This document shows positions 263 through 63,803 of a stretch of DNA of 64,000 nt, piece by piece. Location: positions 24,853 through 88,852 of the forward strand of contig JANQXM010000029.1 of the NCBI GenBank assembly GCA_030729385.1, written 5' to 3'. The translations under genes were made by a program, and so were the position numbers. The notes beneath the pieces are model-generated. The model ran no database searches. It was not told where the DNA came from and saw nothing but the letters and a program-made list of their open reading frames with translations. This DNA comes from Opitutales bacterium (GTDB lineage: Bacteria; Verrucomicrobiota; Verrucomicrobiia; Opitutales; Coraliomargaritaceae). The stretch's first letter is position 1; each line of letters begins with the position of its first letter.

Positions 263-3200
263 ATGAAACCCATGAAAACAAACCTCGCGCGGCATTTTGG
301 CCGCTCCATCGGGATCGCGCTCATCGCAGCCGCTCCTGCCGCCATCGCTGCTCCAGTCGGAGTTGCTGATGATTTTGAATCCTATACTTCCGGTGCGACG
401 CCTCTTGTTGCGGACTGGAGCACCACATACCAAGCGGATCCGTCGGATCAGCAGAATCTCTTTACAGTCGAGGATGCGCTCGGAGAGGGTGGCAGTAAGG
501 GATACTCGCTTGACGTGCTCACCGCAGAGCAGAGCTACAAGAGTCTGCGCCAAATTGGGGCGACTGGAGATGTAGTTATCGTTGAGGCTGACTTTCAGAT
601 CGCGATCGACGGCACTTTGCTCACCGACACTCCTAGCGGTGTCAACAAAGGTATCCTCGGGCTTGAAATTAGTAATACTCCGACTTGGTTTGATGGCAAT
701 GGCTTCACGGTAGCTCTTGCTCGCCGCGATAACGACTTCTGGGGGTTGTCATTGAATGCAGCTCCTTTTATCGAGGGCTTTGAAAATAACACGGCCTTGG
801 GGCTTCCACCTCGCGCAGGAGAGGGACTCGCAGCGCCGGCAGGGACTAGTGACTGGTTCACTGTGAGCCTTGCGCTCACAGACACGGGTGCTGCTTCACC
901 AGCATCTGGTTGGACCTGTGTTGCCACAGTGACCAATAGGTCAACTGGAGCCGTGGTATTTACCTCACCTTCATGGGACCTTCCAAACACAATTCTGGCT
1001 GGTTCAACTTTGTATGGCGGGCTTACTTCGCCGTTTTCTGGCTATACCGGAGACAAGGTGAATACCGTTGGCAAGGTTAGCGCAGCAACCGCCGACAATT
1101 TTAGCATCTTTGGCTATTCGTCGTCTATCGATGCGGACGGCGATGGATTGACGGAACTCGAAGAAGGCCTACTCGGCACGAGTGACAGCGATTCCGATTC
1201 TGATGATGATGGCTACAGCGACAAGTTCGAGGATGACAATGGCTACGATCCACTTGATGCGAACAGCAACCCATTGGTTACTCTCTATGCTGACTTCTCA
1301 GAGGCGAATGGGTATGTGGACGGCAACCTTAGTGGTCAAGAAGGCTGGCTAGGGCAGACCAACACTCAAGTCGATGCCACTGCTGGCACAATCAGCAATA
1401 CTGGCGCTGGATATATCCGCACAGTCCACGGCAACGGGGTTCTGGGGAGCACCGGAGGTAATCCGGCAACGGCTACAGGCACCTTCGCGACCGGAGACGT
1501 TATTTCGATAGATTACGACTATCAATTTACATTGCCGCCTGCTGTGAATTCCAATATGGTGGTCGCGGGATTCCGCGGGGAAACGGCATCTGATTCCAAG
1601 CCTAAGCAGGGCTTCAAACTAGCATATAACCAATTCTCGGCAGCAACTGGTGGAAACATCAAGTTCTGGCCGGATTTGGCCGATACTGTGAATGGCGACG
1701 CCCTTATTATTGATGGTTCTTTATTTGGTCTTAACGGTGCTGGTGATCCGGGAGTGGGCACTGGAGCTGTCGATCTTGAAAGCGATGACATTAGGATCTC
1801 CTATCTCGCTGAGTGCACCGATGCTGGCACCAATGCATGGGAGGTCACTGGCTTTACAGTCACTAATCTCACAACATCGCAGACCTGGAGTTACTCCGGT
1901 CCTACTCAGACATTCACTTACGATGACGACGGAGCCACTGTCCCAGCGACTCCAACGGAGGCGTTTTTCGCTCAGCAACTTGCACCGAACGGTCAAGCTA
2001 CCTTCACTGGAAGATCAAGCCGAGTTGTTCTTAAATATGCTACTAGTGGCGTCGACGCGGATATGGACGGTCTCTCTCAGGCTGAGGAATTGGCGCTCGG
2101 CACCTCCGACGGTAATGATGACACTGACGGTGATACCTTCAGCGACTTCGCCGAAGTGAACGCGGCGCCGACTACTGATCCGCTTGACGCGAATTCGTAT
2201 ACGGACGCTCCGCTTCGCTCGGAAGTGGACTTCAATGATTATGCTCTCGGGACGCCTTCCGGCACACTATGGAGCACCAAATGGTCAGGTGCCCCTACGA
2301 CTTCCCAGCAAAATCTGTGGGCAGTGGAAGCCGCCAATGGAGTGGACGGCAGCCAGGGTTATGCCCTTGATGTCACCACCGCTTGGCGCAACTACCATAC
2401 CATCAATCAGGCCTCCGTCACTGGAGATGTCCTGACTCTCAGTGGTGATGTTCGTTTCTCAACTACTGGAGCCCCGCTCAACGAAGAGCCAGCTCCTGGG
2501 ATCAATGGTGTCAACGATGGCTTTATCGGCCTTGTGGTCACCACGGAACCCGCATGGTGGCAGGTCAATAATACCAATGGCGGTTTCACCTTCCAGGTTG
2601 CACGTCGTGCTGATGACAACTGGGGCGTTTTCGTCAATGGATCTGTAGAGGCTTGGTTGTCCAATGCCGATATCGGGCTAGCTGGTGGACTCACTGCTTC
2701 TGAAAGTGACTGGTTCACTCTAAGTGCGCAGATTGCTCCGAACGCTGGTGGCACCGCTTATGAGATCGTCTGCACTGTCTCCTATCAGGGGACGCCACTC
2801 CACACCACTGCCGCGATCGAACTCGACAATGTGGTATTCCCAATCGGTGGTGCCATGTATGGCGGATTCTCCACGGGTTACAACAATGACCCTAGCAACA
2901 CGGGTTCCCCGCTTATCGGTTCTGACACCGTTTCGTTTATGCCTGTTGGAAATATTGCCAAGGTCGCTTCTGTGGACATGGACAACTTCTCCTTGGTCGG
3001 CTACAGCGACTCTATCGATATTGACATGGACAACTTGAGCCAGTCTGAGGAATTCCTCCTTGGAACTAGCGATCTCAACACAGACACTGATGGTGATAGC
3101 TACAACGACGATACTGAAGTGAACGCTGGAACTGATCCGCTTAACCCGCTCGACTTCCCAGTCGGAACGCCTGTTGATCCACAAGTTGGTTCCTTTGGCT

Positions 3201-3400
3201 TCACTGGTGGTGACACAGTGACCATTGCATTCACGGGTGAGGCGTCTACCGTCTACAAGTTGACGCATACCGTCGATCTGGCGACTTCGTTTGTGTGGGT
3301 TATGGACACTCCAGCCACTGACGGTTCGGGTAATGGTTCGGTTACTTACGTAATCCCAGATCCAGTGCCTGCGAACAGCTTCTTCAGAATTGAGGAATAG
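263..3400 (+). CDS. secreted 1045-aa modular repeat protein: two copies of a ~260-aa lectin-like module, a distinct middle module, three thrombospondin-type-3-like Ca-binding stretches and a C-terminal beta-sandwich
   Basis: N-terminal signal peptide (IALIAAAPAAIAAP). Internal duplication of aa ~33-292 and ~650-915. D-x-D-x-DG-rich stretches (DADGDGLTELEEGLLGTSDSDSDSDDDGYSD and two more). Ends in SFFRIEE. Followed by a strong terminator. Confidence 0.8.
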   Translation: MKPMKTNLARHFGRSIGIALIAAAPAAIAAPVGVADDFESYTSGATPLVADWSTTYQADPSDQQNLFTVEDALGEGGSKGYSLDVLTAEQSYKSLRQIGATGDVVIVEADFQIAIDGTLLTDTPSGVNKGILGLEISNTPTWFDGNGFTVALARRDNDFWGLSLNAAPFIEGFENNTALGLPPRAGEGLAAPAGTSDWFTVSLALTDTGAASPASGWTCVATVTNRSTGAVVFTSPSWDLPNTILAGSTLYGGLTSPFSGYTGDKVNTVGKVSAATADNFSIFGYSSSIDADGDGLTELEEGLLGTSDSDSDSDDDGYSDKFEDDNGYDPLDANSNPLVTLYADFSEANGYVDGNLSGQEGWLGQTNTQVDATAGTISNTGAGYIRTVHGNGVLGSTGGNPATATGTFATGDVISIDYDYQFTLPPAVNSNMVVAGFRGETASDSKPKQGFKLAYNQFSAATGGNIKFWPDLADTVNGDALIIDGSLFGLNGAGDPGVGTGAVDLESDDIRISYLAECTDAGTNAWEVTGFTVTNLTTSQTWSYSGPTQTFTYDDDGATVPATPTEAFFAQQLAPNGQATFTGRSSRVVLKYATSGVDADMDGLSQAEELALGTSDGNDDTDGDTFSDFAEVNAAPTTDPLDANSYTDAPLRSEVDFNDYALGTPSGTLWSTKWSGAPTTSQQNLWAVEAANGVDGSQGYALDVTTAWRNYHTINQASVTGDVLTLSGDVRFSTTGAPLNEEPAPGINGVNDGFIGLVVTTEPAWWQVNNTNGGFTFQVARRADDNWGVFVNGSVEAWLSNADIGLAGGLTASESDWFTLSAQIAPNAGGTAYEIVCTVSYQGTPLHTTAAIELDNVVFPIGGAMYGGFSTGYNNDPSNTGSPLIGSDTVSFMPVGNIAKVASVDMDNFSLVGYSDSIDIDMDNLSQSEEFLLGTSDLNTDTDGDSYNDDTEVNAGTDPLNPLDFPVGTPVDPQVGSFGFTGGDTVTIAFTGEASTVYKLTHTVDLATSFVWVMDTPATDGSGNGSVTYVIPDPVPANSFFRIEE

Positions 3401-3430
3401 TCGGTCTCTACAGACTTCTCTATAAATCTA

Positions 3431-3460
3431 GCCCCGGGAGTTTTCTCCCGGGGCTTTTTA
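3431..3460 (+). terminator. rho-independent terminator
   Basis: GCCCCGGGAG-TTTT-CTCCCGGGGC perfect 10-bp stem followed by TTTTTA, 31 nt after the stop of 263..3400. Confidence 0.8.
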
Positions 3461-3686
3461 TTGTCATACCGAGAGGTTTCATGCGGGAATTTTAGCCTCC
3501 TAGTAAACTTAATTTTACTTGTGTAGTTTTACAGGGTTTTAAGTGCATCTAGTTTTTCATTTGGTTATCATTAAAATTACCTAAACCCAATGTTATTATG
3601 GTATTTTGCTGTTTAATAGTGAGCTGAGCTCTAGGCGAAATTGCGCATGAATTGATAGTTTAAGATTTTATAATAGGACCCATTAC

Positions 3687-3714
3687 TTGACACGTGGATT
3701 GTAAGTAGTAGCAT
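3687..3714 (+). promoter_or_regulatory. candidate promoter for 3854..7453 (TTGACA-N16-TAGCAT) with a TTGACACGTG box
   Basis: TTGACA at 3687-3692 and TAGCAT at 3709-3714. The box and its upstream AGATTTTA are shared with the promoter region at 182. Confidence 0.3.
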
Positions 3715-3853
3715 CCGTATTTCTTACGATTCTCCTTATCCCTATATTCAACGCAGTCTTAGGCAATTGTCAGGTAGCGTCGTTGGTAATTCATTTTTCA
3801 TACAGTGCGATGTAGTAGCCTTTGCTTCACGCGTAAGTTAGTAACTTTTCCTG

Positions 3854-6800
3854 ATGAGACCGCTCACTTCAGCCATACGTTTTTCGTTCTGCACGCTCCT
3901 TCTGAGCATCGTGATCGCACAGTATTCTGTTTGCGCAGCACTTACGCAATCGGTCCAATTTACACCGGTTGAGGACGTCTACATTGAGAATGCGATCGTG
4001 AATGATGGGAACCAGCTGCGGTGCCAGTCCAGTGTGCGCACCGTCTATATGAAATTTACGGTTACGGGGATCCCCGCGGGCAGTGTGATTACTGATGTTA
4101 ACTTAAGCTTACAGGAAAATGGTGATACTGGTAACGGCACGCTCCGCTTTTTTCGTGGTTCAGACACTAGTTGGACCGAAAGTAGTATTACCGATCTGAA
4201 CGCACCCACCACACTCGATGAGGTGGGTATTCGCAGCGGCAGCGTGAGTAGTGCGGAGGTTATTGATGTCGACGTCGATTCACTGGTTACAGGCAATGAC
4301 GACTACACGGTCATAGTAGAGATGGACTCCGGTGGCAACGACGTTGCATTTGGATCGAGCGAAAGCGTTCGTATACCGTTACTCACAGTCACTTATGAGC
4401 TAGTATTGCCAGATGTATCGTTTGGTTTTGAAGAGACCTTTAACGACTTGCTTCTCGGATCTCAACCGACATCAATATGGAGCAGTAAGTGGGACGGGAA
4501 CAATCCCTCGCAGCGATTACTTTGGACGGTAGGGGCATCCAATGGTGTGGGTAGTTCGCAGGGGTATGCCTTGGATGTAACAACGGCTTCACGTAACTAC
4601 CATACGATTTATCAGACAGCTGTTGCTGGAGCTGTCGGGCATACGCTTAATTTGAGAGCTGACTTCCGCTTCTCGACTACTGGAGCTCCTCTCGACGAAA
4701 CGCCTGCTCCTGGAATCAGTGGTGTCAACGATGGCTTTATCGGGCTAGTGATCACCACGGAACCCGAATGGTGGAAGGTCGGTGGGACCAATGGTAATTT
4801 CACCTTCCAGATCGCACGCCGCGAGGATAACAACTGGGGTGTCCTCGTTGATGGAATCAATGCATGGTTGTCGAATGCTGACATAGGACTTGATCCCGGA
4901 CTCACTGCCTCGGAAAGTGACTGGTTCACTCTGAGTGCGCAGATCGCCCCGAATGCCGGTGGGACCGCTTATGAAATCGTCTGCACGGTCTACTATCAGG
5001 GAACCGCACTCTACACGCATCCCGCCATCGAGCTCGACAATACCGTCTATCCGATCGGGGGCGACATGTATGGAGGGTTAACGACTGGTTACAACAGCGA
5101 CCCTAGCAACACGGGTGATGCGACTGGAGAGGATGCCACTTTACAGATGCCAGTTGGATCGATTGCCAAGATCGCCAGTGTGGACGTGGATAACTTCTCC
5201 TTCCTTGTCTACCCCGATGCATTAGAGCCTCACGGGCTAACTATGGATCCAACAGCCCAAGATTTGGACGCGAATGGACTTCCAGACATTTGGGAGGCGA
5301 TCTACCAAGCTTGGGGGCTAGATCCGGCTGCTGATTCCGACGGCGATGGTGTAAATAATGGCACCGAGGCCGGCTTCGGGACTGATCCTTTTGATCCGTT
5401 TGTCAGCCCCAGTGTTAGCATCCGAAAAGGAGAGGGGAACAACATCATTTTGTCTTGGGCTCAGCTCGAAGGGCGCCCCGGTTCAGCTCTATGCTTTACC
5501 GAGTTCGGCACGCTGCCTTTACCGGTCGCTACTGGAACGCCAGTTTTAAACGGTGATCGTTGGGAGCTGACTATACCGATTTCGCAAGACGCCGAATTCT
5601 TTCAAATTGCTAGCTCGGAGAGCGACCTCGATGGCGATGGAGTGCCCGATTGGATCGAGCCTTGGCTAGGCTTTTCCAGCGATCCGGGTGACAGTGAGTC
5701 GGTTGCCCTCGACAAGTCTTATGATACCGATGGCGATGAAGTCCTAGATACGAACCTAAGCGGTGATCTCTCTGCATTCAACGAAATCTATCGCCGCTCA
5801 TCCCCTGGCGAACGACTGACTCAAGCACAAGCAGCGCGCTTACTTCTTCAAGGAACTTTTGGACCGGCTTCGGTTAATGAGGTCGACTATGTCGCGCGTA
5901 TTGGTGCGGAGGCATGGTTGGATGAACAGCTGTTGCTTCCTGTGTCTTTCACCCGTCCCTACATTGACGCGATCAAGGCAGACTTTGAAAATGGTCAGAC
6001 CGATCCCGATCTGGCGGGCTACCAGATCAACGGCGGAGGTGGCACGCCTTTCGTTGGCGGAGGCAATTACATGACCGCGTGGATGCGGGTGGCTTTACAG
6101 TCGGAGGATCAGCTCCGCCAGCGAGTCGCTTTTGCGCTCAGCCAGATTCTCGTAGGCTCTAGAAGTGCTGCCGGTCTGGCCAATCAACCTAGGGCTACTG
6201 CCGCCTATTACGATCTCATGATTGAGCATGCCTTTGGTAATTTTGAAGACCTTTTGTTACAGGTCTCGATTAGTCCTTATATGGGGAATTATCTCAGTCA
6301 CCTCGGCAATCGAAAGGCCGATGTTTCGATCGAGCGTTATCCAGACGAGAACTATGCCCGGGAGATTATGCAGCTATTTTCAATTGGGCTGTGGGAACTG
6401 AATTTGGACGGCACTCAAAAGCTGGACGCGCAGGGCGAGCCGATTCCCACCTATGGGAACTATGAGATCACTGAGCTTGCCCGTGTTTTTACTGGAACTC
6501 ACTACGCTTCACTCACGAACTCGGGCACATCGTTCGGATCTGGTTGGCGGGATGATGGTGATAGTGTAAACGAGTGGATGATTACGCCGATGAAGGTCTA
6601 TGCCGTGCAGCATGATTTTGATTCTAAGCAAGTCGTTGCTGGCAACGGAACATACCACACAATTCCTGCCAGAGGCACCACTGATGAGAATGCCATGCAA
6701 GATGTGGAGGACGTGATGTATCACTTGGTGCGCCATCCAAATACCGCACCGTTCATATGCCGTCAATTGATCCAGTTCTTGATCACTTCCAATCCTTCGC

Positions 6801-7453
6801 CGGAATATGTCGCACGGGTTGCTTCCGTATTCGTAGATAATGGTTCCAGTGTGACAGGTGATATGAATGCTGTCGTCCGTGCCATATATCTGGATGAAGA
6901 GGCGCGCGACCCGCTAGAGCACCTAGCTACGCCATACTTCGGTCAACTTCGCGAACCACTCCTGCGCTACATGCATTTAGCACGTATGCTGAAGCTCGAC
7001 CGCCATGAGGATCTTCTTACTTGGGATTGGGGAAATCATCAAGCAGAGACGCTTCAAGAACCGATGAAGGCACCTTCTGTATTTAATTATTATCGCCCCG
7101 ACTTCCGGCTCTTCGGCACGCTCGCCGATAACGGGCTGGATTCACCTGCTTTCGGAATCGTCAACTCATACTCGTCCATATCGTTCCCCAACTGGATGTG
7201 GCGTCTGTGCTACCACGGCTTCAAATATATTGATTACGACTATCCGGAGGACCTCTCTGAACTAGTTGCTCTTGCTGGTGACATTCCGGTTTTACTCGAT
7301 CACCTGTCCTTGCTTTACACCGCCGGAACTTTGAGCGCAGAGAGTCGGCAGATTATTACGACCGCGCTTACCTCGGAGTCGAATCTAACTGAGCGCGCAC
7401 GTCTGGCTGCTTACCTCGTCCTTGTTTCTCCTGAAGGCTCCTGCCTGAAATAA
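3854..7453 (+). CDS. secreted 1199-aa fusion: DNRLRE-type CBM-like module + lectin-like module paralogous to 263..3400 + TSP3-like repeats + C-terminal DUF1800 domain
   Basis: Signal peptide. aa ~190-460 align with aa ~650-915 of the upstream protein. The C-terminal ~550 aa carry DUF1800 hallmarks (ARLLLQGTFGP...AWLDEQLLLP; LRQRVAFALSQILVGS). Confidence 0.8.
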   Translation: MRPLTSAIRFSFCTLLLSIVIAQYSVCAALTQSVQFTPVEDVYIENAIVNDGNQLRCQSSVRTVYMKFTVTGIPAGSVITDVNLSLQENGDTGNGTLRFFRGSDTSWTESSITDLNAPTTLDEVGIRSGSVSSAEVIDVDVDSLVTGNDDYTVIVEMDSGGNDVAFGSSESVRIPLLTVTYELVLPDVSFGFEETFNDLLLGSQPTSIWSSKWDGNNPSQRLLWTVGASNGVGSSQGYALDVTTASRNYHTIYQTAVAGAVGHTLNLRADFRFSTTGAPLDETPAPGISGVNDGFIGLVITTEPEWWKVGGTNGNFTFQIARREDNNWGVLVDGINAWLSNADIGLDPGLTASESDWFTLSAQIAPNAGGTAYEIVCTVYYQGTALYTHPAIELDNTVYPIGGDMYGGLTTGYNSDPSNTGDATGEDATLQMPVGSIAKIASVDVDNFSFLVYPDALEPHGLTMDPTAQDLDANGLPDIWEAIYQAWGLDPAADSDGDGVNNGTEAGFGTDPFDPFVSPSVSIRKGEGNNIILSWAQLEGRPGSALCFTEFGTLPLPVATGTPVLNGDRWELTIPISQDAEFFQIASSESDLDGDGVPDWIEPWLGFSSDPGDSESVALDKSYDTDGDEVLDTNLSGDLSAFNEIYRRSSPGERLTQAQAARLLLQGTFGPASVNEVDYVARIGAEAWLDEQLLLPVSFTRPYIDAIKADFENGQTDPDLAGYQINGGGGTPFVGGGNYMTAWMRVALQSEDQLRQRVAFALSQILVGSRSAAGLANQPRATAAYYDLMIEHAFGNFEDLLLQVSISPYMGNYLSHLGNRKADVSIERYPDENYAREIMQLFSIGLWELNLDGTQKLDAQGEPIPTYGNYEITELARVFTGTHYASLTNSGTSFGSGWRDDGDSVNEWMITPMKVYAVQHDFDSKQVVAGNGTYHTIPARGTTDENAMQDVEDVMYHLVRHPNTAPFICRQLIQFLITSNPSPEYVARVASVFVDNGSSVTGDMNAVVRAIYLDEEARDPLEHLATPYFGQLREPLLRYMHLARMLKLDRHEDLLTWDWGNHQAETLQEPMKAPSVFNYYRPDFRLFGTLADNGLDSPAFGIVNSYSSISFPNWMWRLCYHGFKYIDYDYPEDLSELVALAGDIPVLLDHLSLLYTAGTLSAESRQIITTALTSESNLTERARLAAYLVLVSPEGSCLK

Positions 7454-7466
7454 CCCCAACAGAACC

Positions 7467-8888
7467 ATGCCAAAACGCATCTCTCGTCGAAAATTTTTAG
7501 GTGAAGCCTCTTGCGCTGGTATCGGCTCGCTTTCCGTGCTCACCAGCCTGCTTAACCTTAAGTTGGCGAATCAAGCGGCCGCCGCGAATCTATCCATCGG
7601 TGGGGATTGTAAGACTATCGTCTGTATTCTGCTCGCGGGCGGGATCGATAGCTTCAACTTCCTCGTGCGTAGAGACGTTGATGGCTATGCCCAATATTCG
7701 GGGGCGCGCACGGATCTAGCGCTTGGTTCCGAGACGCTTCTTCCGATCAATCAATCGGGAGTGGGGGATGGCAACCTCTACGGACTACACCCCAGCTGTT
7801 CAGGGCTCGCAGATATGTTCAACGGCACCGGTCCCTTTGCCAGTTCTGGGTCACGCCTTTCCTTTATCAGTAACATCGGCACGCTCGTGCAGCCCACGAC
7901 GCTCACGCAATACCAGTCAGGTAATTTTCCGCTCCCTAAGTCACTGTTTTCGCACATCGACCAGATCACGCAGTGGCAGACTTCTGTGCCACAGGGGCTT
8001 TCCGAACTCAGTGGTTGGGCCGGCCGCATGGCGGACGTGTTACACTCCGACTTGAACACGGGCGCCACGTCGATGTCGATTTCATTGGCGGGAAACAACG
8101 TCTTCCAGATCGGTAAAGACACACTTCAGTTTTCGATCACTGAAGACGGCGCACTCTTGCCGAGTGGTCCTGCTGCAGGTCTTGGCAGCACAGAAGCTCG
8201 CAAGAATTTCGCAGTCGATGGTCTCCTTGGTGGCACCTACAATAATATGGTTCAGGATGCGTTTGCGACACATGTGAGTAATAGCCACGACTCTCAGGCG
8301 GCCTTTAATGCTGTTTACCAAAGCATCGATGACTCTGCCATTGCACCGCTTTTTCCTAGCACCGGCATCGCTCAAGAACTACTCGCTGCCGCTAAGACGA
8401 TTAAGGCGCGCGAACAACTCGGGTTGCGTCGCAGCACCATTTTCATTCAGCGCGGCGGATGGGATCATCACGGTGAGTTACTGGTCACTCAGGCTGCGAT
8501 GCTGGAGGAACTCTCTGATGCAATTTCTGCCTATCAGCAGGCGCTTGAGATCTTAGGCGTGGCCGATGATGTTATCAGTTACACTGCCTCCGATTTTGGT
8601 CGCACACTGCGCTCCAACGGACGTGGGACCGATCATGCATGGGGAGGGAATCAAATGGTTTGGGGTGGTCCCATCGACGGTGGTAATGTCTTTGGAGCTT
8701 TTCCAGATCTGTCTTTGAATGGTCCTGATGATGTTGGGTTTGGCGGACGTATGCTGCCTACGACATCGGTCGATAAATTCTTTGAGGAAATGTCGCTTTG
8801 GTTTGGAGTCTCTTCTGCTGACATGAATATGGTGCTTCCAAATATCGGTAATTTTTCCACGGAGCCGACGATCGGTTTCATTTCTTAA
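7467..8888 (+). CDS. DUF1501 family protein with twin-arginine signal (sulfatase/alkaline-phosphatase-like fold)
   Basis: Tat motif SRRKFLGEA. Motifs GGIDSFN, GGWDHHG and FGRTLRSNGRGTDHAWGG are typical of DUF1501. It starts 14 nt after the DUF1800 gene, the classical PVC gene pair. Confidence 0.8.
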   Translation: MPKRISRRKFLGEASCAGIGSLSVLTSLLNLKLANQAAAANLSIGGDCKTIVCILLAGGIDSFNFLVRRDVDGYAQYSGARTDLALGSETLLPINQSGVGDGNLYGLHPSCSGLADMFNGTGPFASSGSRLSFISNIGTLVQPTTLTQYQSGNFPLPKSLFSHIDQITQWQTSVPQGLSELSGWAGRMADVLHSDLNTGATSMSISLAGNNVFQIGKDTLQFSITEDGALLPSGPAAGLGSTEARKNFAVDGLLGGTYNNMVQDAFATHVSNSHDSQAAFNAVYQSIDDSAIAPLFPSTGIAQELLAAAKTIKAREQLGLRRSTIFIQRGGWDHHGELLVTQAAMLEELSDAISAYQQALEILGVADDVISYTASDFGRTLRSNGRGTDHAWGGNQMVWGGPIDGGNVFGAFPDLSLNGPDDVGFGGRMLPTTSVDKFFEEMSLWFGVSSADMNMVLPNIGNFSTEPTIGFIS

Positions 8889-8913
8889 ACTTAGGGAAAG
8901 GGGAGTTTAGACC

Positions 8914-9420
8914 GTGGTAAAGCCTCGCCTAGTAATTTTGATTCCGGTGCTAGTTGGCATTGCGGTCATCGCCATCTTGTTCTCTCGCTCATCTCGACCG
9001 AGCCCTGAGTCGGCAATCGCATCTGTTGAAGCGCCCAGTCCTATACTCACGCAAAGTGAGGTCTATCGGGGACCGGATGGTAACGCCTATCTCGTTGAGC
9101 ACGGACTGCCTGAGAGCACCGCTGCGCAGGATTTAAAACTCGTCGGACGTGTGGTGGATGGCATGCATAGTCTCTTCAAAGAGCTAGACACTCGCCATGT
9201 GGCGACTAACGAGCAACTCTCCGCCTTTCTTACCGGAGCCAATCCAGAAGGCCTTCAGTATCTGGATACAGACTTACCCATTTTTCAAAACGGACTTTTG
9301 TGCGACCGCTGGGGACAAGCCTATATCGTCCACCCACTCGGCACTGGGCAGATCGAAATAAGAACAATCGGAGCAGACGGGATTCCTTACAGCGACGATG
9401 ACCTTGTCCTCCAGCCGTGA
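8914..9420 (+). CDS. membrane-anchored hypothetical protein with a GspG-like (T2SS pseudopilin G) C-terminal domain and no prepilin motif
   Basis: GTG start 8 nt after AGGGGAG. One N-terminal TM helix. C-terminus DRWGQAYIVHPLGTGQIEIRTIGADGIPYSDDD resembles the DPWGxxY...GxDG...DD signature of GspG. Confidence 0.5.
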   Translation: MVKPRLVILIPVLVGIAVIAILFSRSSRPSPESAIASVEAPSPILTQSEVYRGPDGNAYLVEHGLPESTAAQDLKLVGRVVDGMHSLFKELDTRHVATNEQLSAFLTGANPEGLQYLDTDLPIFQNGLLCDRWGQAYIVHPLGTGQIEIRTIGADGIPYSDDDLVLQP

Positions 9421-9471
9421 GGCATTCGTCGAAGTTCATTGCAAAATGAAAAAAGTAGCGCATGCGCGTCC

Positions 9472-9720
9472 CGAATGGCACTACCTTAAGACGAAATTAG
9501 GAGCTTATGTATTCAAGTATGTATATTCAACATTAAGCTTAAGGAGCCCGTGAGTCGTATGTTTTAGGTGGGGTGCTCTCGCCGAGAGCACCGTTCGCTG
9601 TTAGGATTAAATGCCGGAATCTTATGGATGGGTATCTGGCAGCGTCCGGCGAACGGTCGCCTCGGCGAGGCGACCCCACCTTTTCAAATACCCAAAGCCA
9701 TCTTAAGGTAGTGCCATTCG
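9472..9720 (+). mobile_element. MITE copy 1 (249 bp, 20-bp perfect TIR, 8-bp TSD GCGCGTCC)
   Basis: Identical to 39970-40218. TIR is CGAATGGCACTACCTTAAGA / TCTTAAGGTAGTGCCATTCG. Direct repeats GCGCGTCC at 9464-9471 and 9721-9728. Confidence 0.85.
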
Positions 9721-9756
9721 GCGCGTCCCTTAAATCTTGAATCGTTCAGCCGCTCG

Positions 9757-10848
9757 CTACTTCACTTCGTAGGGTTCGAGCTTAGCCCAATTAAACACGA
9801 CGCCTGTGCCAGGTGCATTTGGTGCGACCGCGCGGGCGTTGTCGACCACGAGTGGGCGCGTCGTGTATTCATCGATCGGGAAGCTGTGCACTTCGAGCCA
9901 GCCTGAGTCGGGTTGGCTAGAAAGTAGGCTAACATGTAGCTCTTGCATGCCATGTGTGCAAACAGTGACGCCGTGTTCATGTGCGAGCTTAGCGGCTGCG
10001 AGCCAACCAGTGACGCCACCACAGTTAGACGCATCGGGCTGGATATAACTAAGCTTTGACTGTTCCAATGCGTAGCCGAATTCGTGAATAGTATGGAGGT
10101 TTTCGCCCATAGCGAGCGGCACACCTGTGGCGTCCGCTATGGTGGCAAAGCCTTTATAGTCGTCGGGTATTGTGGGCTCCTCGAACCAGAGGATGTCATA
10201 TTCTGAAAATGCTTTGGCCGCTTCGATCGCTTGATCGACAGTGAGCGAGTAGTTGGCATCGACCATGAAAGTGATGTCTGGTCCGATTAGCTCACGCACT
10301 GCTTTGACGCGCTCGACATCTTCAGCAAGATTGGCGCGACCGACTTTGATTTTGACACCATTGAATCCAGCGGCGAGGTAGCCACGAATGTTGTTGAGCA
10401 ACTTCTCCAGTGGGAAGAGTAGGTCGATGCCGCCGCAATATGCCTTACAAGTATTGTCCGCTGCGCCAGCCATTTCCCAGAGTGGTTTTCCTGCCTTTTT
10501 GCAGCGAATGTCCCAGAGTGCGATGTCGATCGCGGATACTGCGAAGGCGGCGATGCCACCGCGCGCTACGTAGTGAACATGCCACTCCATGAAATCGTAG
10601 ATACCTTCGATGTCGTCACCGTCTTTACCGATGAGAACCGATTCGAAGTCGTGCTCGACCATGGCTTTGATTGAGTAGCCACCCTTGCCCCCAGTGTAAG
10701 TGTAGCCAGTGCCTTCGGTGCCGTCTTCGAGAGTGATGGTGACTGTAATGAGTTCAAAGTGGGTGTGGTCGCCGTGCTTTGCGTCGGTGAGGACTTCGGC
10801 GAGTGGCACTTCAAATAGGCGAGTGGAAATATTGGTAATCTTGTTCAT
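9757..10848 (-). CDS. enolase-superfamily (mandelate racemase/muconate lactonizing) enzyme, candidate 3,6-anhydrogalactonate cycloisomerase
   Basis: MR/MLE-type layout (VKIKVG, MVDAN, FEEP, GEN). Same operon as an AldA-like dehydrogenase. A GH117 elsewhere in the locus supplies the substrate. Confidence 0.7.
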
Positions 10849-39846: not shown

Positions 39847-39969
39847 GGACTGTCTGAAGTCAGCTTCAAAAATGTTGGACTAAATTTGGAGGTCGCGCTG
39901 GTGCGTATCTGCGCCGCACTAACGTTCGTAATGTCTCGCCAACAACGACGGATGCGGTGCGGGACGGAC

Positions 39970-40218
39970 CGAATGGCACTACCTTAAGACGAAATTAGGA
40001 GCTTATGTATTCAAGTATGTATATTCAACATTAAGCTTAAGGAGCCCGTGAGTCGTATGTTTTAGGTGGGGTGCTCTCGCCGAGAGCACCGTTCGCTGTT
40101 AGGATTAAATGCCGGAATCTTATGGATGGGTATCTGGCAGCGTCCGGCGAACGGTCGCCTCGGCGAGGCGACCCCACCTTTTCAAATACCCAAAGCCATC
40201 TTAAGGTAGTGCCATTCG
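39970..40218 (+). mobile_element. MITE copy 2 (identical to 9472-9720)
   Basis: Same 249 bp and the same 20-bp TIR. Flanking 8-mers are GGACGGAC (39962-39969) and AGACGGAC (40219-40226). Confidence 0.85.
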
Positions 40219-40268
40219 AGACGGACGGGATTCTGCGTTTGTTCGATTTTGTGTTGTCGTGAGTTTTC

Positions 40269-40339
40269 GACGTTCGTGCGGTCCGGGATCCGACTTCGCC
40301 CTACGGGCTACGCCGGGACGCAGCGGGCCTGCGCTACCT
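40269..40339. repeat. degenerate end of the 35.2-kb palindromic repeat family
   Basis: GACGTTCGTGCGGTCCGGGA ... CCTGCGCTACCT matches the right end of 35237-35397 (GACGTTCGTGCGGTCTGGGACGGACCTGCGCTACCT), with a ~39-nt insertion. Confidence 0.5.
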
Positions 40340-40385
40340 TTTCCTTCTTATGGAAGTCCGCCACGAATCTTTCATGGGCTTTGTG

Positions 40386-40400
40386 TGTATCTAAAGATAT
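40386..40400. promoter_or_regulatory. operator-like site TGTATCTAAAGATAT upstream of the sulfatase-GH16 fusion gene
   Basis: Identical 15-mer to 16161-16175, located 66 nt upstream of ATG 40466. Confidence 0.45.
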
Positions 40401-40465
40401 GCGCTGAGTCATCGACGTGTCTGAAAAAAACAGGATGCTTTCCTTTGTTCTATACTCCTCTTACG

Positions 40466-43162
40466 ATGACCCCATCCCATGTTTCTATCTTTCTAGGTCT
40501 GACGCTGACTCTACTGAGCGCAGTGGCCAAACCGCTTTCGCAGCCGAATATCCTTTGGATCATTACCGATGATCAGCGCAGTGATTCGGTCGCCGCATTT
40601 AACCGTGCCACGACGGGGCAGGCTGAAAGTAAGCTTGGCTATGTTGAGTCACCTAACCTTGATGCGCTGGCTGCCGAGGGGACACTCTTTACGAATGCTT
40701 ATTGCAACTCGATGGCTTGTGCGCCGTCTCGGAGTTCCATGCATACTGGTAGATATCCTCATCGCAGTGGTATGTATGGATTTCGTAAGGCACATCAGGC
40801 GGTGGATGTCCGAAGTCGGATGATCCCTGAAGTCATGTTGGAGCATGGCTACCAGCCTTCGATGTTTGGTAAGAGCGGTTACTATATTTTCGATTGGGAA
40901 AACTACAACAACTGGAAAGACCCAGGTTATTACGATCCTTTTATCACTAACAATACGCTGCAAAAGACAGACGGAAGTGACTTCTGGTTTAACAAGCCCT
41001 GGTCGTCTGAGCTGCATAAGGTGATCGGCACAGAAGAGGTCTTTCGATATGCGGACGGCAGCGTGAAGCGCTATTGGACGAATCGAGTTGAACGTGATCT
41101 GACAGTGGAAGAATTAGAGACCCGAAAGGAAGTCGAGGCGGAGCTTGATATACTACGCAGCTATACTCGCTCTAACCCGGAGCTCATCATTGGGGGGGTG
41201 TCGCCAGCGAAAACAGGTGAGACCTTGGATGGGGCTATTGTTCAATCGATGCAGCGCTATTTTACTAACGAAGGGAAGGACTATACTACAGTCACCGGAG
41301 ATCGCACAAAAGGTCCCGACCCAAGTCAGCCACTTTTTGTAAATTTAGGCTTCGTCTTCCCGCATACGCCTGTCCTGCCGACGAAAGAGTTTCGGGATCG
41401 GTTTAAAGATAAGCAGTATCGGATTCCTGAATACGAGGCATTTGAAGCTGAGTCGATGCCAGGGTCGCTGCGGGATCTGCGCGAGGATATGGACTTTTCA
41501 CGAATGACCGATGAGGAGAAGCAGCAAGCGATTCGTGACTACTATGCATTCTGTGCGATGGGGGACCATTTGATTGGGCAGGCGATTCAGTCCTTCAAAG
41601 ACTACTGCGCAAAGCATGATCAGGAGTATCTCATCCTCTATGTCTGTGGCGACCATGGCTGGCATTTGGGTGAGCAGGGGATTGAGGCTAAGTTCGGTCC
41701 TTGGTATCAAACTGTGCACGACAGTGTGATTGCGGTGTCTTCCGATAAATCTCGTTTCCCCTCTGGTAAGATTGTTCACGACTGGGTCGAGTTTGTAGAC
41801 TTCGCTCCAACGTTTTATGAAATGGCAGAGATTAATTCTGAGGTGCATCCCGGACTCGATGGAGTGAGCCTCTTGAAAACACTCTATAGCGGACCGCAGC
41901 GGGATTACGTAATCGGGGAGATGAATCAGGTGCGCGGAGATCGTGCCTATTTGCGCAGTGAAGACTTTGCTTTTGCCATGCGGGTGCGGCCTTTCTGGAC
42001 TAAGCCTGGCGAAGGCTATGCTCCAGGTGAGCGTATTCGTTGGGGACTCGATGCGCCGACTGAAGAAGTTGATATGTCTCTTTATGATTTACGTCTCGAT
42101 CCTGATGAACGCCGTAATGTGGCGCAGGAACCCGAGTATCAGGCATTGGCTGCGTGGTTCCGTCAGAAGTTGGGTTCCATCGTGCTGGGTGACGGCAGGC
42201 TGGAAGTGGACTGGACTCAGGAGAACGTTTATAGCGTTCACAATTTTGCGAAAGGTGCGCACGATGGTAAGCTCGATATTCCGGAATCTGTGATGCCGCA
42301 TGTGGAACTGCCCGAGGATCCACGTGCCTTGGCTATTGAAGCTTTGAATGCAATTCCCGAACCGGAAGGTCCTTATTCGATTGATTTGCCAGAAGAAGTG
42401 AACTGGGAGTCGGTCGCTGAATTGTCGGATGAGTTTGAAGGTGATGCGCTGGATTTAACGAAATGGCATGCCGATCCGATGGCTCATGGCTGGGGCTGGG
42501 TGGGTCGTCCTCCTGCTATTTTTTTAGAGCGAAATGTCAGTGTCGATGACGGTAAGATGAAAGTAACCGTGGGTAAGCTGGATGAACCAGTCTATGTGGG
42601 CGGAGATCGTTTTGTCTATGAGGGAGCGATCGTGCGCTCGATATTGCCTGCTGCTACAGGTATGTATGTCGAATGTAGAATGAAAGCCAATGCGACCGAG
42701 ATGTCTTCCACTTTTTGGCTCATGACAAAGGGCGATACCAGCTTGTCCCAGGAACTCGATATTCAAGAGTGTATCGGCAAGCCGGTTCAGGAAGCTGTGG
42801 ATTGGGCCCAAGACTGGGATCGAATATTTCATTCCAACATGATTCGAAGAAATCCAGATATGGAGCCCGACCGTGTTCAACTGCAAGACCAGCGCTCGAT
42901 GACAGAGAGGAACTCCCAGGACTTTCATGTATATGGCGCCTGGTGGAAATCTGAGCGAGAGGTTCTCTTCTATCTTGATGGCGAGTATCAGTATACGATA
43001 CGTCCAGAGGTCGATTGGAATATGCCGGCCTATATTCATATGGCGATTGAGACGTATGACTGGAATCCAGTCGGCGATACCGGCACCTTAATCGAGCACG
43101 GCACCCTTGACGAGCGCACCACGCAATACGATTGGATTCGCACCTGGCGAGTGAGCGAATGA
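40466..43162 (+). CDS. bifunctional-architecture protein: N-terminal S1 sulfatase fused to a C-terminal GH16 domain
   Basis: Start set to ATG 40466 ([21 protein letters not shown] signal peptide). [27 protein letters not shown] and [14 protein letters not shown] mark the sulfatase. The last ~270 aa are ~60% identical to the GH16 of 32949..34298, including ELDIQE. Confidence 0.8.
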
Positions 43163-59984: not shown

Positions 59985-60133
59985 ACTTTTCGCGGAGTAA
60001 TTGTCGTGGTAAGTCACTACTAGCGCATTAGCAGTTCTTATGTTGCGTGAGTATGTAACCATCTTTTTTGCAATGTAATCACGACGTCCCGCATTTGTGA
60101 GAAATGTGTTGCGATAACCAAATTCACATATTT

Positions 60134-60166
60134 GATTTACACGTGTAATAATTACACGTGTAAATC
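60134..60166. promoter_or_regulatory. perfect 33-bp palindrome made of two TTACACGTGTAA 12-mers, upstream of the giant gene
   Basis: GATTTACACGTGTAAT-A-ATTACACGTGTAAATC. Each half is itself palindromic around CACGTG. It lies 56 nt upstream of ATG 60222. Confidence 0.5.
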
Positions 60167-60221
60167 ATGTGTTTACGTCAGTTTGCTAATTCTGGCGCTC
60201 TATTCTGATAAATACCCTAAT

Positions 60222-63200
60222 ATGTTTATGAAAAACAGGTTAACCCATAACGACTCCAATGAACTGATTGCTACTATAGCGAAAAGAGATGTTCTCGGGA
60301 TTAAATTTAAGGCAAATGGACGTGCATCAAAACAGGGCTTTGCCTTGGTAATCGCATTAGGTCTAATGGCTTTTGTGCTTTTATTACTTCTAAGTATTAG
60401 CACATTAGTTCGGGTTGAGAGCTCTAGCGCTCAGAATGGTAAAGACCGTTTGAGAGCTCGAATGAATGCTCAGTTGGGGGCATATATAGCACTCGGAAAT
60501 TTGCAGAAAATGGCAGGCTCCGATCAGCGTGTCACTGCGCGTGCGGATATTCTTTTGGCTCCGAATAGCACTCCGCTGACGGGTGCAGGGCAGTGGACTG
60601 GAGTTTGGTCCAGTAAGTCTAATACTAGTGATGCATTTGATCAGAGCGTGGGCTTGGACCAACATCAGCCGCAGTGGCTAGTTAGTGGAGATATCTCTAA
60701 TTTTGTAGATGCGAATAATCGTCTCACGTCATCCCCAGCAAATGCTGCTAACACTATAAAGATGGCAACACTAGGCTCATCCGTAGAAGTCGCTGAAAGT
60801 GAAGTCGTGGTACCAACGGAAACTATTCTAGGTGAGTCCGATTCGGGAATTGGGAAATACGCGTATTGGGTTAGTGACGATGGGGTCAAAGCGCGTGTTA
60901 ATCTGAATAATCCCTATGCGGATAGCTCATTGACTGATTCAGATTATTACAGTGCGGCAACCGCGCAACAAGGCGATCCATCAGCGGCAAAAGCTAGCGA
61001 CAGTAGCCGCCCATATCTTGCCGATCCCTCGAATACTTCATTGTGGAAGAATCCTACCAGTGGCTTGGATCGAGTTGTCGGATATAAGACCCTACCGCTT
61101 GTAGGAGCGACTGGTAGCGCTGATATGGTATCGCGTCAGTTCTATCATGATTTTACGGTTCATTCCAAGAGCGTGCTTTCCGATGTTAAAAACGGAGGTT
61201 TAAAACAAGATTTATCGACTGCCCTGATTGACCCAGCTGCGAATGGCTTGACCGGTCAGGTCTTCTCAGCCACCGCGGGCGGAACTGCTGACGAAGGGGA
61301 TCCTGGTGGTCCACGCTGGACTCAGCTTGGAGACCATTACCGCTTGGCGCACGATACGAGTTCAGGTGCGATCAATTTCCGCCTGCCGACGAATGATCAA
61401 GTCGGAATTACACCCGTAGTGACTCGCTTAAATTTTGTAATTCAAGCGTTTGCGGAGAAGTATCAAACGCTAGTTCCTGGTCAAAATCTCGCAAATGACT
61501 ACCGCTATACTGTGGGAATTTTTCCGCTGATTACGCTCTGGAATCCATACGATGAGGATCTGGTAATTCCTGATTTGGGCTTCCAAACGGATATGCGTGG
61601 CGTCTATTTGACTGAGGCGCCTGAGGGAGATAATAACATACTAGACCTAATCAAACAGTGGGGCATCATACCGCATCCGGACGATCAAAACAGAGGTATG
61701 ATGGGTATGACGATCTCTGGAACGACCATTCCAGCAGGCACCGCTATTAATTTTGCTCCCCCTGTAAACTCCTATATAAATTGGACCAACGCTGAGCAAA
61801 ATGTGCTGGTGCCTGGTGCAAGTGCGGAATTTGTGAATGGTTTTTACTCCGCTCCAGTGGAACTTCCAGTGACCGCTGCGCAATATCCTTTCTATTTGAA
61901 CGGTAGCAATGCAAGCGTCTGCATGGCTCCATACGCCAATGTCGATACGCAGGTGACAAATCTATATGCGACAACGTTTGAAGAGGACCCGAATCTTGCG
62001 GATCGTTTTTTGGTTTTTGCCACGATTGGTCCCGGTGGTTACTATCGTAATCATCCTTGGTATTCTCCACGGGTGATTGATGTAGATCGATTTGGTGAGG
62101 CGGATTTTAGTTTCATTCAGCCGCAAAACGCATCAGCTGGAACTCCTTTTGATGATTTTTCCCCCATCGATTTGGCAACGATTCGTCAACACGCTCATAC
62201 AATTACGGGCATCGCTCGGATTATAAACTTTCCTAAGTCGGACGTTCGTGAAACTCAAAAAATTCATCTGCTTAGCCAAATGAATCCTCGCGCGCAGATT
62301 ATTCAGGATCAGATGCACGTCCGCATTCAACAACAACAGAACTCTGCTGATAGAAACTATCAATATCGCATGATTGGTTTTGGGCAATATGCGTGGTGGC
62401 AAGGTAACAATCTACCCAATTTCCTAGGAGGAACAGATAGCGAGATTTCTTACGTCGGCTTGGGTAACACTGCTTCCTATGGAAATGAACAAAGTATATT
62501 GTTTGAGGCACCGACTCGTGTGCCACTAGGGATTGGGCAGTTCATGCATGCGAACTTGTCGAACATTGGTGAACTTTCCTACAACTTTGAAGGTAAGAAC
62601 TGGTATAGTAATCTACAGCAGCCACACACCACCCCTGCTTACGCGATAGGCAACTCGATAGCGAATATACACCTCCCGTTGAGTAGCACTAAAGAGGTGA
62701 TTAATTCGAGTTCTCCGATGTTTGATGGTGCGTCTGGAAGTTACTTTAAGGCAGACTGGGCGGGTGCGCATTACGACTATTCATACGAGCTCAATGATGC
62801 ACTCTGGGATCGCTTCTACATGTCGACAATACTGCCCGATAATCAATCGAATGTCAGCTTCCCATTGCCCAATGCACGGATGACTAAATGGAAGGCGGCA
62901 GCCACGGATCAGGATCTAACCAGTAGCGACGAGTCGGCCGCACATATAATGCTAGAAGGCGGGTTTAATGTGAACTCGACTTCAGTAGCTGCATGGACGG
63001 CAGTGCTTGGTGCATTGCGCGACGTGGATACTCTCGGGCAGGGCGCTTCGGCTACGACCCTACGACATAATTTTTCACGCTTTACGGCTCCTGAGTTTGA
63101 GTCGACGGGCTTAATACCTGACTACGGTCAGAACGATCGCCAAGAGTTGATTGCAGGGTTTCGTAGTCTTTCCGACGATCAAATCTCAGACTTGGCTGGA

Positions 63201-63803
63201 GCTATCGTAAAAGAGATACGGACCCGCCGGTCAGCGACTAGTTATCCATTTCTATCGTTATCAGATTTCATAAACCGCTCAATATCTCCCGATGATGTTT
63301 CATCTGCTACAAAGAAGCGTTTTGCATACATGGGCGCGCTTCAGTTTGCTATCGATCAGTCGAGTGTGAACGGAAAGCCAGCAATTGATGAGGGTTGGCA
63401 GTCGCAAAGTGGCAGCGGTCTTTGGGACGACGAATACATTTCTCCGACCTTACCCAGTGATTCTAGCCCGTTCCAGTCAGATTCAATTGAGGTGATCCGC
63501 AATCGCCCGTTTATGGATGCGGCACCGGGTGCGCTCACTCAGGCGGATATACTTGCGAAGGTTGGCTCAATGCTCACTGCGCGTAGTGATACGTTTACGA
63601 TCCGTGGCTATGGTAGCGCAAATACAATCACCACTGGGAAAGTCGATGGTTCGGCATATTGCGAAATGATCGTTCAGCGCACGCCAGAGTATTATGATAA
63701 TGTGGATGAAAATTATGATGTCGCCACAGATCCGACGAATCAACGCTTCGGTCGTAAATTCGAAATTGTTTCCTTTCGCTGGTTAAGCGATGGGGAAATC
63801 TAA
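60222..63803 (+). CDS. 1193-aa membrane-anchored giant protein, GspK-like ends (possibly Verru_Chthon cassette protein A-like)
   Basis: Start moved to ATG 60222, because the TTG at 60132 lies inside the palindrome. N-terminal anchor QGFALVIALGLMAFVLLLLLSIS resembles minor pseudopilin GspK leaders. The C-terminal MLTARSDTFTIRGYGSA...CEMIVQRTPEY is typical of that class. Confidence 0.5.
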   Translation: MFMKNRLTHNDSNELIATIAKRDVLGIKFKANGRASKQGFALVIALGLMAFVLLLLLSISTLVRVESSSAQNGKDRLRARMNAQLGAYIALGNLQKMAGSDQRVTARADILLAPNSTPLTGAGQWTGVWSSKSNTSDAFDQSVGLDQHQPQWLVSGDISNFVDANNRLTSSPANAANTIKMATLGSSVEVAESEVVVPTETILGESDSGIGKYAYWVSDDGVKARVNLNNPYADSSLTDSDYYSAATAQQGDPSAAKASDSSRPYLADPSNTSLWKNPTSGLDRVVGYKTLPLVGATGSADMVSRQFYHDFTVHSKSVLSDVKNGGLKQDLSTALIDPAANGLTGQVFSATAGGTADEGDPGGPRWTQLGDHYRLAHDTSSGAINFRLPTNDQVGITPVVTRLNFVIQAFAEKYQTLVPGQNLANDYRYTVGIFPLITLWNPYDEDLVIPDLGFQTDMRGVYLTEAPEGDNNILDLIKQWGIIPHPDDQNRGMMGMTISGTTIPAGTAINFAPPVNSYINWTNAEQNVLVPGASAEFVNGFYSAPVELPVTAAQYPFYLNGSNASVCMAPYANVDTQVTNLYATTFEEDPNLADRFLVFATIGPGGYYRNHPWYSPRVIDVDRFGEADFSFIQPQNASAGTPFDDFSPIDLATIRQHAHTITGIARIINFPKSDVRETQKIHLLSQMNPRAQIIQDQMHVRIQQQQNSADRNYQYRMIGFGQYAWWQGNNLPNFLGGTDSEISYVGLGNTASYGNEQSILFEAPTRVPLGIGQFMHANLSNIGELSYNFEGKNWYSNLQQPHTTPAYAIGNSIANIHLPLSSTKEVINSSSPMFDGASGSYFKADWAGAHYDYSYELNDALWDRFYMSTILPDNQSNVSFPLPNARMTKWKAAATDQDLTSSDESAAHIMLEGGFNVNSTSVAAWTAVLGALRDVDTLGQGASATTLRHNFSRFTAPEFESTGLIPDYGQNDRQELIAGFRSLSDDQISDLAGAIVKEIRTRRSATSYPFLSLSDFINRSISPDDVSSATKKRFAYMGALQFAIDQSSVNGKPAIDEGWQSQSGSGLWDDEYISPTLPSDSSPFQSDSIEVIRNRPFMDAAPGALTQADILAKVGSMLTARSDTFTIRGYGSANTITTGKVDGSAYCEMIVQRTPEYYDNVDENYDVATDPTNQRFGRKFEIVSFRWLSDGEI

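Follow-up and report, generated by a model that had tools for sequence, protein, structure and literature searches.

The stretch of DNA analysed here, 64,000 nucleotides (nt) long and referred to as the window, comes from an Opitutales bacterium (assembly GCA_030729385.1, contig JANQXM010000029.1, positions 24,853-88,852 of the forward strand) and carries three adjacent genes for a DUF1800 protein, a DUF1501 protein and a small membrane-anchored protein with a GspG-like head. Judged by gene order and homology, these genes form a cassette that is conserved across Verrucomicrobiota and newly described here. The three open reading frames (ORFs) lie on the plus strand with the positions and spacing that an earlier, model-made annotation, termed the sequence-only reading below, had given them (Table 1). 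Thirteen nucleotides separate genes 1 and 2, the ATG of gene 2 standing 14 nt past the stop of gene 1, and the 25 nt between genes 2 and 3 hold a Shine-Dalgarno-like run (GGGGAG) upstream of a GTG start. Lying close together on one strand, uninterrupted by a terminator and kept in the same order in 23 other genomes, genes 1, 2 and 3 look like an operon. The gene upstream is set apart by a strong hairpin, and a consensus scan found a promoter-like site belonging to the cassette itself, which suggests separate transcription units; the cassette and its downstream gene are convergent. This layout is in keeping with the co-transcription of the three genes claimed in the sequence-only reading; a single transcription unit that includes the upstream gene is not supported. 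An Rfam scan of window positions 3300-9900 returned no credible RNA family.

Table 1. The three-gene cassette, the modules of its first protein and the flanking features, in window coordinates.
Feature	Position	Strand	Description and basis
Gene 1	3854..7453	+	1199-aa secreted multidomain DUF1800 protein
Sec-type signal peptide	3854..3937	+	aa 1-28, hydrophobic helix at 5-25, ...SVCA/AL; predicted from the sequence and from a helix in the structure model
CBM96 / DNRLRE module	3953..4393	+	aa 34-180; Pfam, NCBIfam, Foldseek
~265-aa module, no assigned fold	4430..5218	+	aa 193-455; paralogy with two copies in ORF 263-3400
TSP3-like Ca-binding stretch	5261..5398	+	two D-x-D-x-[DN]-G motifs (aa 470, 494); MtsD-type match in NCBIfam search
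Small predicted beta-sandwich	5411..5623	+	aa 520-590, six strands, pLDDT 76-88
Third TSP3-like motif	5624..5659	+	DLDGDGVPDWIE, aa 591-602; motif match
DUF1800 domain	5837..7435	+	aa 662-1194; Pfam, predicted all-alpha
Gene 2	7467..8888	+	473-aa DUF1501 protein, twin-arginine signal
Gene 3	8914..9420	+	168 aa, GTG start, transmembrane-anchored, GspG-like head
Upstream gene	263..3400	+	1045-aa TSP3-repeat protein with two copies of the 270-aa module
Terminator-like hairpin	3430..3455	+	11-bp stem, 9 G-C pairs, T-run; 3' of the upstream gene, upstream boundary of the cassette
Sigma-70-like promoter match	3687..3714	+	TTGACA, 16 nt, TAGCAT; 10/12; ~140 nt 5' of gene 1; consensus match only

The product of gene 1 is identical to the NCBI entry 'MAG: DUF1800 family protein [Opitutales bacterium]'. 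As the sequence-only reading had it, the C-terminal part of this secreted protein is a DUF1800 domain: the Pfam hidden Markov model (HMM) PF08811 matches amino acids (aa) 662-1194 with E=3.9e-75 and 254 bits (cut-off 26.1), spanning model positions 1-416 of 419. The domain is predicted to be all-helical in the structure model, and some 55 of its residues, many of them polar, are invariant across 24 cassette orthologues. Further modules precede it. The DNRLRE-type, CBM-like module expected at the N-terminus is borne out by two HMMs that score above their cut-offs, namely CBM96 (PF24517; aa 34-180, E=6.6e-15, 55.8 bits versus 26) and DNRLRE_dom (NF033679; aa 59-180, E=1.5e-13, 51.1 bits versus 34), and the best Foldseek match of the region is 8wab, a chondroitin-sulfate-binding carbohydrate-binding module (CBM), at E=8e-6. 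What is joined to the DUF1800 domain is a bona fide CBM-family module, predicted to bind a glycan. Three copies of a TSP3-like motif, D-x-D-x-[DN]-G-x-x-[DN]-x-x-E, lie at aa 470, 494 and 591; the TSP3-like stretches proposed earlier are therefore present as motifs, whereas the Pfam family TSP3_bac (PF18884) remains below its gathering score (E=0.0033, 17.7 bits versus 25). The proposed beta-sandwich is likewise predicted; its values of the predicted local distance difference test (pLDDT) are given in Table 1. In a Foldseek search with the model of the full-length protein, meaningful similarity was restricted to the CBM96 region, and none of the matches listed was a credible one to the helical DUF1800 part.

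Gene 2 encodes the Tat-signal DUF1501 protein that had been placed next in line. The family HMM (PF07394) covers aa 49-419 with E=6e-27 and 95.2 bits (cut-off 27), and the twin-arginine translocation (Tat) motif SRRKFL at aa 6-11 is followed by a hydrophobic stretch and AAA. R7, R8 and F10 of this motif are nearly invariant in 21 orthologues; the score on TIGR01409 is 14.3, below the cut-off of 16.7. Invariant in the alignment of DUF1501 orthologues are D61, T139, S162/H163/D165, D333-x-H335 and D389-H390. A pattern of D, T, DxH and DH is the one expected of the metal site in the alkaline-phosphatase superfamily. From this invariant set together with Tat export we infer that DUF1501 may be a metal-dependent enzyme of that superfamily.

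The protein of gene 3 has an N-terminal transmembrane helix (aa 4-26), which a linker of variable length connects to a GspG-like head (aa 80-164). Its similarity to GspG is real but weak, and was seen by four methods. Both HMM libraries score it below cut-off (T2SSG, PF08334: E=0.009, 16.6 bits versus 21; TIGR01710: E=0.001, 19.1 bits versus 88.85), while phmmer against the PDB aligns aa 80-164 with PulG/GspG (5wda, 1t92) at E=1.1e-4, placing DRWG and GADGIPYSDDD of gene 3 on the D-P-W-G and GPDGVPESNDDI loop of PulG. The six best Foldseek matches in the PDB are all major pseudopilins of the GspG type, with weak scores (E=8e-3 to 0.2, TM-scores of 0.34-0.40) for a model whose pLDDT is 74-84 in the head and 64 overall. 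The homologues of gene 3 have the invariant pattern DRW...H...E.R..G.D......DD, which covers the very stretch aligned with the PulG loop, and their linkers between helix and head range from roughly 30 to 70 aa. The N-terminus reads MVKPRLVILIPVLVGIAVIAILF, and neither gene 3 nor its 12 aligned homologues contain a prepilin leader (G/F-T-L-I-E motif, Glu5). The ORF already uses the first start codon that follows an in-frame stop and cannot be extended upstream. An anchored 168-aa protein with a GspG-like C-terminus and no FTLIE leader, as described in the sequence-only reading, is thus what we find.

How widespread is this arrangement? A scan with a gene 3 profile of the genomes of 185,579 species (one genome per species) retrieved 32 loci, all in Verrucomicrobiota, which fall in Opitutales, Akkermansiaceae, Verrucomicrobiaceae, Roseibacillus and Rubritalea. 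Of these loci, 24 extend far enough upstream to be judged, and in 23 of them tblastn places DUF1800, DUF1501 and gene 3 one after another in this order and on one strand; the approximate distance from DUF1800 to DUF1501 has a median of 23 nt across loci. Locus L017 is the only complete locus in which DUF1800 and DUF1501 do not stand before the gene 3 homologue. Approached from the other end, via homologues of DUF1800, six of seven loci show all three genes, and the seventh contig (L002) ends within DUF1501. Proteins that combine CBM96 with DUF1800 exist in Lentimonas, Coraliomargaritaceae, Puniceicoccaceae and other Verrucomicrobiota, and each one looked up is followed by DUF1501 and then, where the contig reaches, by a gene for 170-190 aa. 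The same two genes follow more distant DUF1800 proteins of 1400-1770 aa, and the last of them is homologous to gene 3 (blastp E of 6e-71 to 7e-12). Moreover, the identities of the three proteins to their counterparts in the window co-vary, with r=0.98 for DUF1800 versus DUF1501 and 0.81 for each of these versus gene 3. In one locus (L007, 13910-14415) two small genes, one of the antitoxin type (Unstab_antitox), sit between DUF1501 and the gene 3 homologue. Among cultured relatives, Lentimonas, Coraliomargarita, Roseibacillus persicicus and Rubritalea spongiae have the cassette.

In Lentimonas sp. (L001, 15394-22357, equivalent to L013, 8921-15881), the cassette is directly followed by two prepilin-type genes (GFTLIE/GFTLLE), a T2SSE ATPase gene and a T2SSF platform gene. 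Type II secretion systems (T2SS) are known to accept folded Tat substrates as cargo. Gene 3 might therefore serve as a cargo adaptor that presents the folded DUF1501 and DUF1800 proteins to a T2SS or pseudopilus for secretion across the outer membrane, a role that would also suit its GspG-like head with the conserved motif resembling a Ca loop. However, among the loci examined T2SS genes adjoin the cassette in this one lineage only, the prepilin cleavage motif and Glu5 are lacking, and a linker varying between ~30 and 70 aa is incompatible with assembly into a pseudopilus. We therefore consider an adaptor function unlikely.

The N-terminal heads of the DUF1800 proteins vary between cassettes. 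Each of the 23 DUF1800 proteins that the genome scan found in cassettes is extended at the N-terminus, by 211-1364 aa. When these and the window protein (n=24) were searched with Pfam, TSP3_bac was found in 13, CHRD in ten, PA14 in five, CBM96 in four, DUF1349 in three, H_lectin in two and GLEYA in one. Beyond the cassettes, the DUF1800 domain of the window matches 8024 representatives of 50%-identity clusters at E<=1e-3, and among the closest 150 of these, 105 have N-terminal extensions of at least 150 aa, 63 of at least 400 aa and 28 of at least 1000 aa. The statement in the sequence-only reading that DUF1800 proteins usually stand alone consequently fails for the near relatives: with every cassette protein extended, and by swappable modules, N-terminal fusion is the norm in this clade and not the exception. 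The coupling of DUF1800 to glycan-binding modules, on the other hand, is reinforced by the PA14, H_lectin, GLEYA and CBM96 domains of the relatives, and the suggestion that the DUF1800/DUF1501 pair may act on glycans gains support from these other heads.

Part of the head of the window protein links it to its upstream neighbour. Over aa 193-519, gene 1 shares 61% identity with aa 654-966 of the product of ORF 263-3400 and 32% with aa 33-293 of the same protein, so that the paralogy with the neighbouring giant protein asserted in the sequence-only reading is real; the lectin-like nature of the shared module is not upheld. The module has no Pfam match even at E<=10, the AlphaFold model is of no use for aa 190-310 (pLDDT 24-33 over half the length of the module), and hhalign comparisons with the concanavalin A (ConA)-like proteins of the window, a 3-keto-disaccharide hydrolase and a glycoside hydrolase (GH) of family 16, were no better than unrelated controls. 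For these reasons, we dropped the label 'lectin-like'. A search for homologues of the 270-aa module added a single protein. The module is confined to gene 1, a Puniceicoccaceae orthologue, TSP3 proteins of the neighbour type and one fragment, and is absent from the 930-937-aa orthologues as well as from the 1200-aa orthologue of Coraliomargaritaceae. The adjacent genes 263-3400 and 3854-7453 have the module and the TSP3 stretch following it in common, at 61-68% identity. Because of this identity between neighbours and the absence from the 930-937-aa orthologues, the module was probably exchanged recently between the two genes, with ORF 263-3400 as either donor or recipient.

Could the cassette encode a surface structure rather than an enzyme? 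Heads such as TSP3_bac, PA14, GLEYA, CHRD and H_lectin are typically found in adhesins, gene 1 has a module in common with the 1045-aa TSP3 protein encoded next to it, and the head of gene 3 is pilin-like. One may thus picture a non-catalytic fibre in which a large, Ca-stabilised adhesin stands on a structural base of DUF1800 and DUF1501 with a pseudopilin-like foot in the membrane. Yet Tat export and the invariant Asp/His/Thr set of DUF1501 point to a cofactor-containing enzyme, the ~55 invariant and often polar residues of DUF1800 are more than expected of a scaffold, and DUF1800/DUF1501 pairs without adhesin-like heads have been reported from Proteobacteria (PMC5122149), all of which makes a purely structural role improbable.

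The genomic surroundings of the cassette in the window invite a different idea. Window positions 9757-38535 hold genes of the agar/porphyran type, encoding a GH16, two proteins with GH86-type porphyranase domains, a GH117-like protein, a GH2 and sulfatases, along with aldehyde dehydrogenase and enolase-superfamily genes of the type found in the 3,6-anhydrogalactose pathway (3,6-anhydrogalactose-dehydrogenase-like and cycloisomerase-like). A cytochrome P450, AraC and LacI regulators and a transporter of the major facilitator superfamily are also present, and sulfatase-domain ORFs number ten in the window. The cassette lies inside this dense locus, and from its position next to a sulfated-galactan locus the sequence-only reading had drawn a functional link to sulfated galactans. 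In that case, the cassette would be an accessory of the adjacent agar/porphyran locus, induced by galactan and acting on sulfated galactan oligosaccharides, for instance by an unusual desulfating or debranching reaction. This would agree with the binding of polyanionic glycans by CBM96-type modules (PMC9971899; 8wab match), and the orthologue in Coraliomargaritaceae (L005/L006/L011) is also located near a sulfatase gene, a GH117-like gene and an MR_MLE gene. However, when ~35 related loci were checked for homologues of sulfatases, GH117 or MR_MLE within 8-10 kb, such neighbours turned up only in that one Coraliomargaritaceae lineage and in L032. The remaining annotated loci adjoin genes for tRNA synthetases, fatty-acid synthesis, arsenic resistance, glycosyltransferases or, in Lentimonas only, T2SS components. 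Even close orthologues that share the CBM96 head have other neighbours, namely arsenic-resistance and T2SS genes in Lentimonas (L001) and glycosyltransferase genes in L003. The promoter-like site of its own, the terminator upstream and the convergent gene downstream likewise set the cassette apart from the galactan genes. Opitutales genomes are rich in sulfatases and carbohydrate-active enzymes, which makes chance adjacency likely. The link to the galactan locus is hence not sustained; the position is probably incidental, at most reflecting a lineage-specific recruitment, and we rate a dedicated galactan function as unlikely.

The same surroundings contain other items worth recording. In an unusual fusion, a 967-aa ORF (window 40259-43162, plus strand) has a sulfatase domain at aa 96-524 and a GH16 domain towards the C-terminus, at aa 803-936. 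A 1223-aa ORF (60132-63803, plus strand) at the margin of the region for polysaccharide utilisation has no Pfam match at E<=1e-3. Two internally identical copies of an intergenic element of ~250 bp, similar to a miniature inverted-repeat transposable element, lie at 9471-9721 and 39969-40219. The element ends in perfect terminal inverted repeats of 21 nt (CCGAATGGCACTACCTTAAGA) and has an inner, imperfect inverted repeat of 33 nt; the copy at 9471-9721 gave no Rfam match.

How does the cassette relate to systems already described? In Proteobacteria, a DUF1800/DUF1501 pair has been noted beside horizontally acquired chitin synthase genes, together with which, and with a sugar epimerase, it was co-transferred (PMC5122149). 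There as here, DUF1800 (PF08811) is directly followed by DUF1501 (PF07394) with a Tat motif in a predicted operon, and the connection to polysaccharides is circumstantial. In contrast, DUF1800 of the window makes up the C-terminal part of a 1199-aa protein that also contains CBM96 and further modules, and a third conserved gene follows, for the membrane-tethered GspG-like protein; the searchable literature contains no description of such a gene alongside DUF1800/DUF1501. In bacteria of the Planctomycetes-Verrucomicrobia-Chlamydiae (PVC) group, DUF1501 is strongly expanded and is also paired with PSCyt/PSD1 proteins bearing Laminin_G_3 or F5/8-C domains (PMC3542564). These PSCyt1/PSCyt2/PSD1 (DUF1549/DUF1553) plus DUF1501 modules of Planctomycetes and Verrucomicrobia resemble the cassette in joining a Tat-dependent DUF1501 to a large exported partner, which sometimes has carbohydrate-binding domains and whose architecture varies around a constant core. 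The partner in the window, however, is DUF1800 and not a protein with cytochrome-c motifs. Both papers (PMC5122149, PMC3542564) provide independent, circumstantial links between glycans and the pair, or DUF1501.

Comparable mixtures of likeness and difference apply to the individual parts. The C-terminal 85 aa of gene 3 align with the globular head of GspG/PulG/EpsG (PF08334, TIGR01710; 1t92, 5wda, 3g20, 4lw9), including D(P/R)WG and the G-x-D-G...DD loop. Unlike these pseudopilins, however, it has no prepilin leader or Glu5, contains a variable linker of ~30-70 aa, scores below the HMM cut-offs and is encoded with DUF1800/DUF1501 instead of secretion genes, Lentimonas excepted. The founding CBM96, TM6-N4 of the alginate lyase Dp0100, binds internal alginate chains (PMC9971899). 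The module of the window shares with this family and with 8wab, its best structural match, a score above the family cut-off and a predicted beta-sandwich, but it is joined to DUF1800 and not to a polysaccharide lyase or hydrolase.

What, then, might the cassette do? We favour a complex of the cell envelope, periplasmic or at the surface, that would act on a glycan or glycoconjugate and in which variable glycan-targeting heads, a catalytic DUF1501, DUF1800 as its obligate partner and a GspG-like membrane tether come together; we assign this reading a probability of about 50%. Gene 1 would be exported via Sec and would join a lineage-variable targeting head, comprising in the window protein CBM96, the 270-aa module, the Ca-binding TSP3 repeats and the small beta-sandwich, to the constant all-helical DUF1800 domain. 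Catalysis would probably fall to gene 2, exported in folded form via Tat, as a hydrolase or transferase that depends on metal, is of the alkaline-phosphatase/sulfatase type and works on an anionic substituent. The GspG-like domain of gene 3, tethered to the cytoplasmic membrane and not a processed pilin, may dock the complex or retain it. The data themselves show which domains are present, that the three genes are conserved and diverge together, that the heads vary and that DUF1501 has a Tat motif; assembly into a complex, catalysis by DUF1501, the parts played by DUF1800 and gene 3, and the substrate are inferred.

Several observations count against this envelope-complex reading. The assignment of DUF1501 to alkaline-phosphatase-like enzymes draws on the motif pattern and on what we take to be the placement of the family in a Pfam clan. 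PDB searches with DUF1501 and DUF1800, both as single sequences and as profiles, returned no match, and a profile comparison by hhalign of DUF1501 with seven sulfatases of the window was not significant (probability 5%, single-comparison E=0.007), with the N-terminal motif misaligned and only the C-terminal SD-x-G strand sensibly aligned. Since residue 62, beside D61, is not conserved, to name T139 as the nucleophile is a guess. The heads need not mean catalysis on glycans, TSP3, CHRD and PA14 occurring in adhesins as well. In L017 (6506-8486), a gene 3 homologue without DUF1800 or DUF1501 follows a 472-aa protein with squalene-hopene-cyclase repeats, so that gene 3 is not strictly tied to the pair. 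The location could be either the periplasm or the surface, and the searchable literature holds no functional study of DUF1800 or DUF1501, their mentions in papers on biomineralisation and on type VI secretion being incidental.

The cassette is a variant of the known DUF1800/DUF1501 gene pair that makes the function of two large DUF families experimentally approachable. It offers three handles on them, namely a conserved three-gene unit, interchangeable glycan-binding or adhesin heads, and a set of invariant residues in each of the two proteins, and so sets out the candidates for co-expression, mutagenesis and ligand screening. The neighbouring seaweed-polysaccharide locus, by contrast, does not name the substrate, which corrects a tempting inference. 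That Verrucomicrobiota possess in this cassette a new envelope machine, in which an unprocessed pilin-derived tether would hold a DUF1501 plus DUF1800 enzyme whose substrate range is re-programmed by the swapping of heads, is a tentative proposal that we deem possible, if somewhat unlikely. If true, the heads of such an envelope enzyme would reveal the substrate class of the DUF1800/DUF1501 superfamily, with its more than 8000 50%-identity clusters, and provide a first function for both DUFs.

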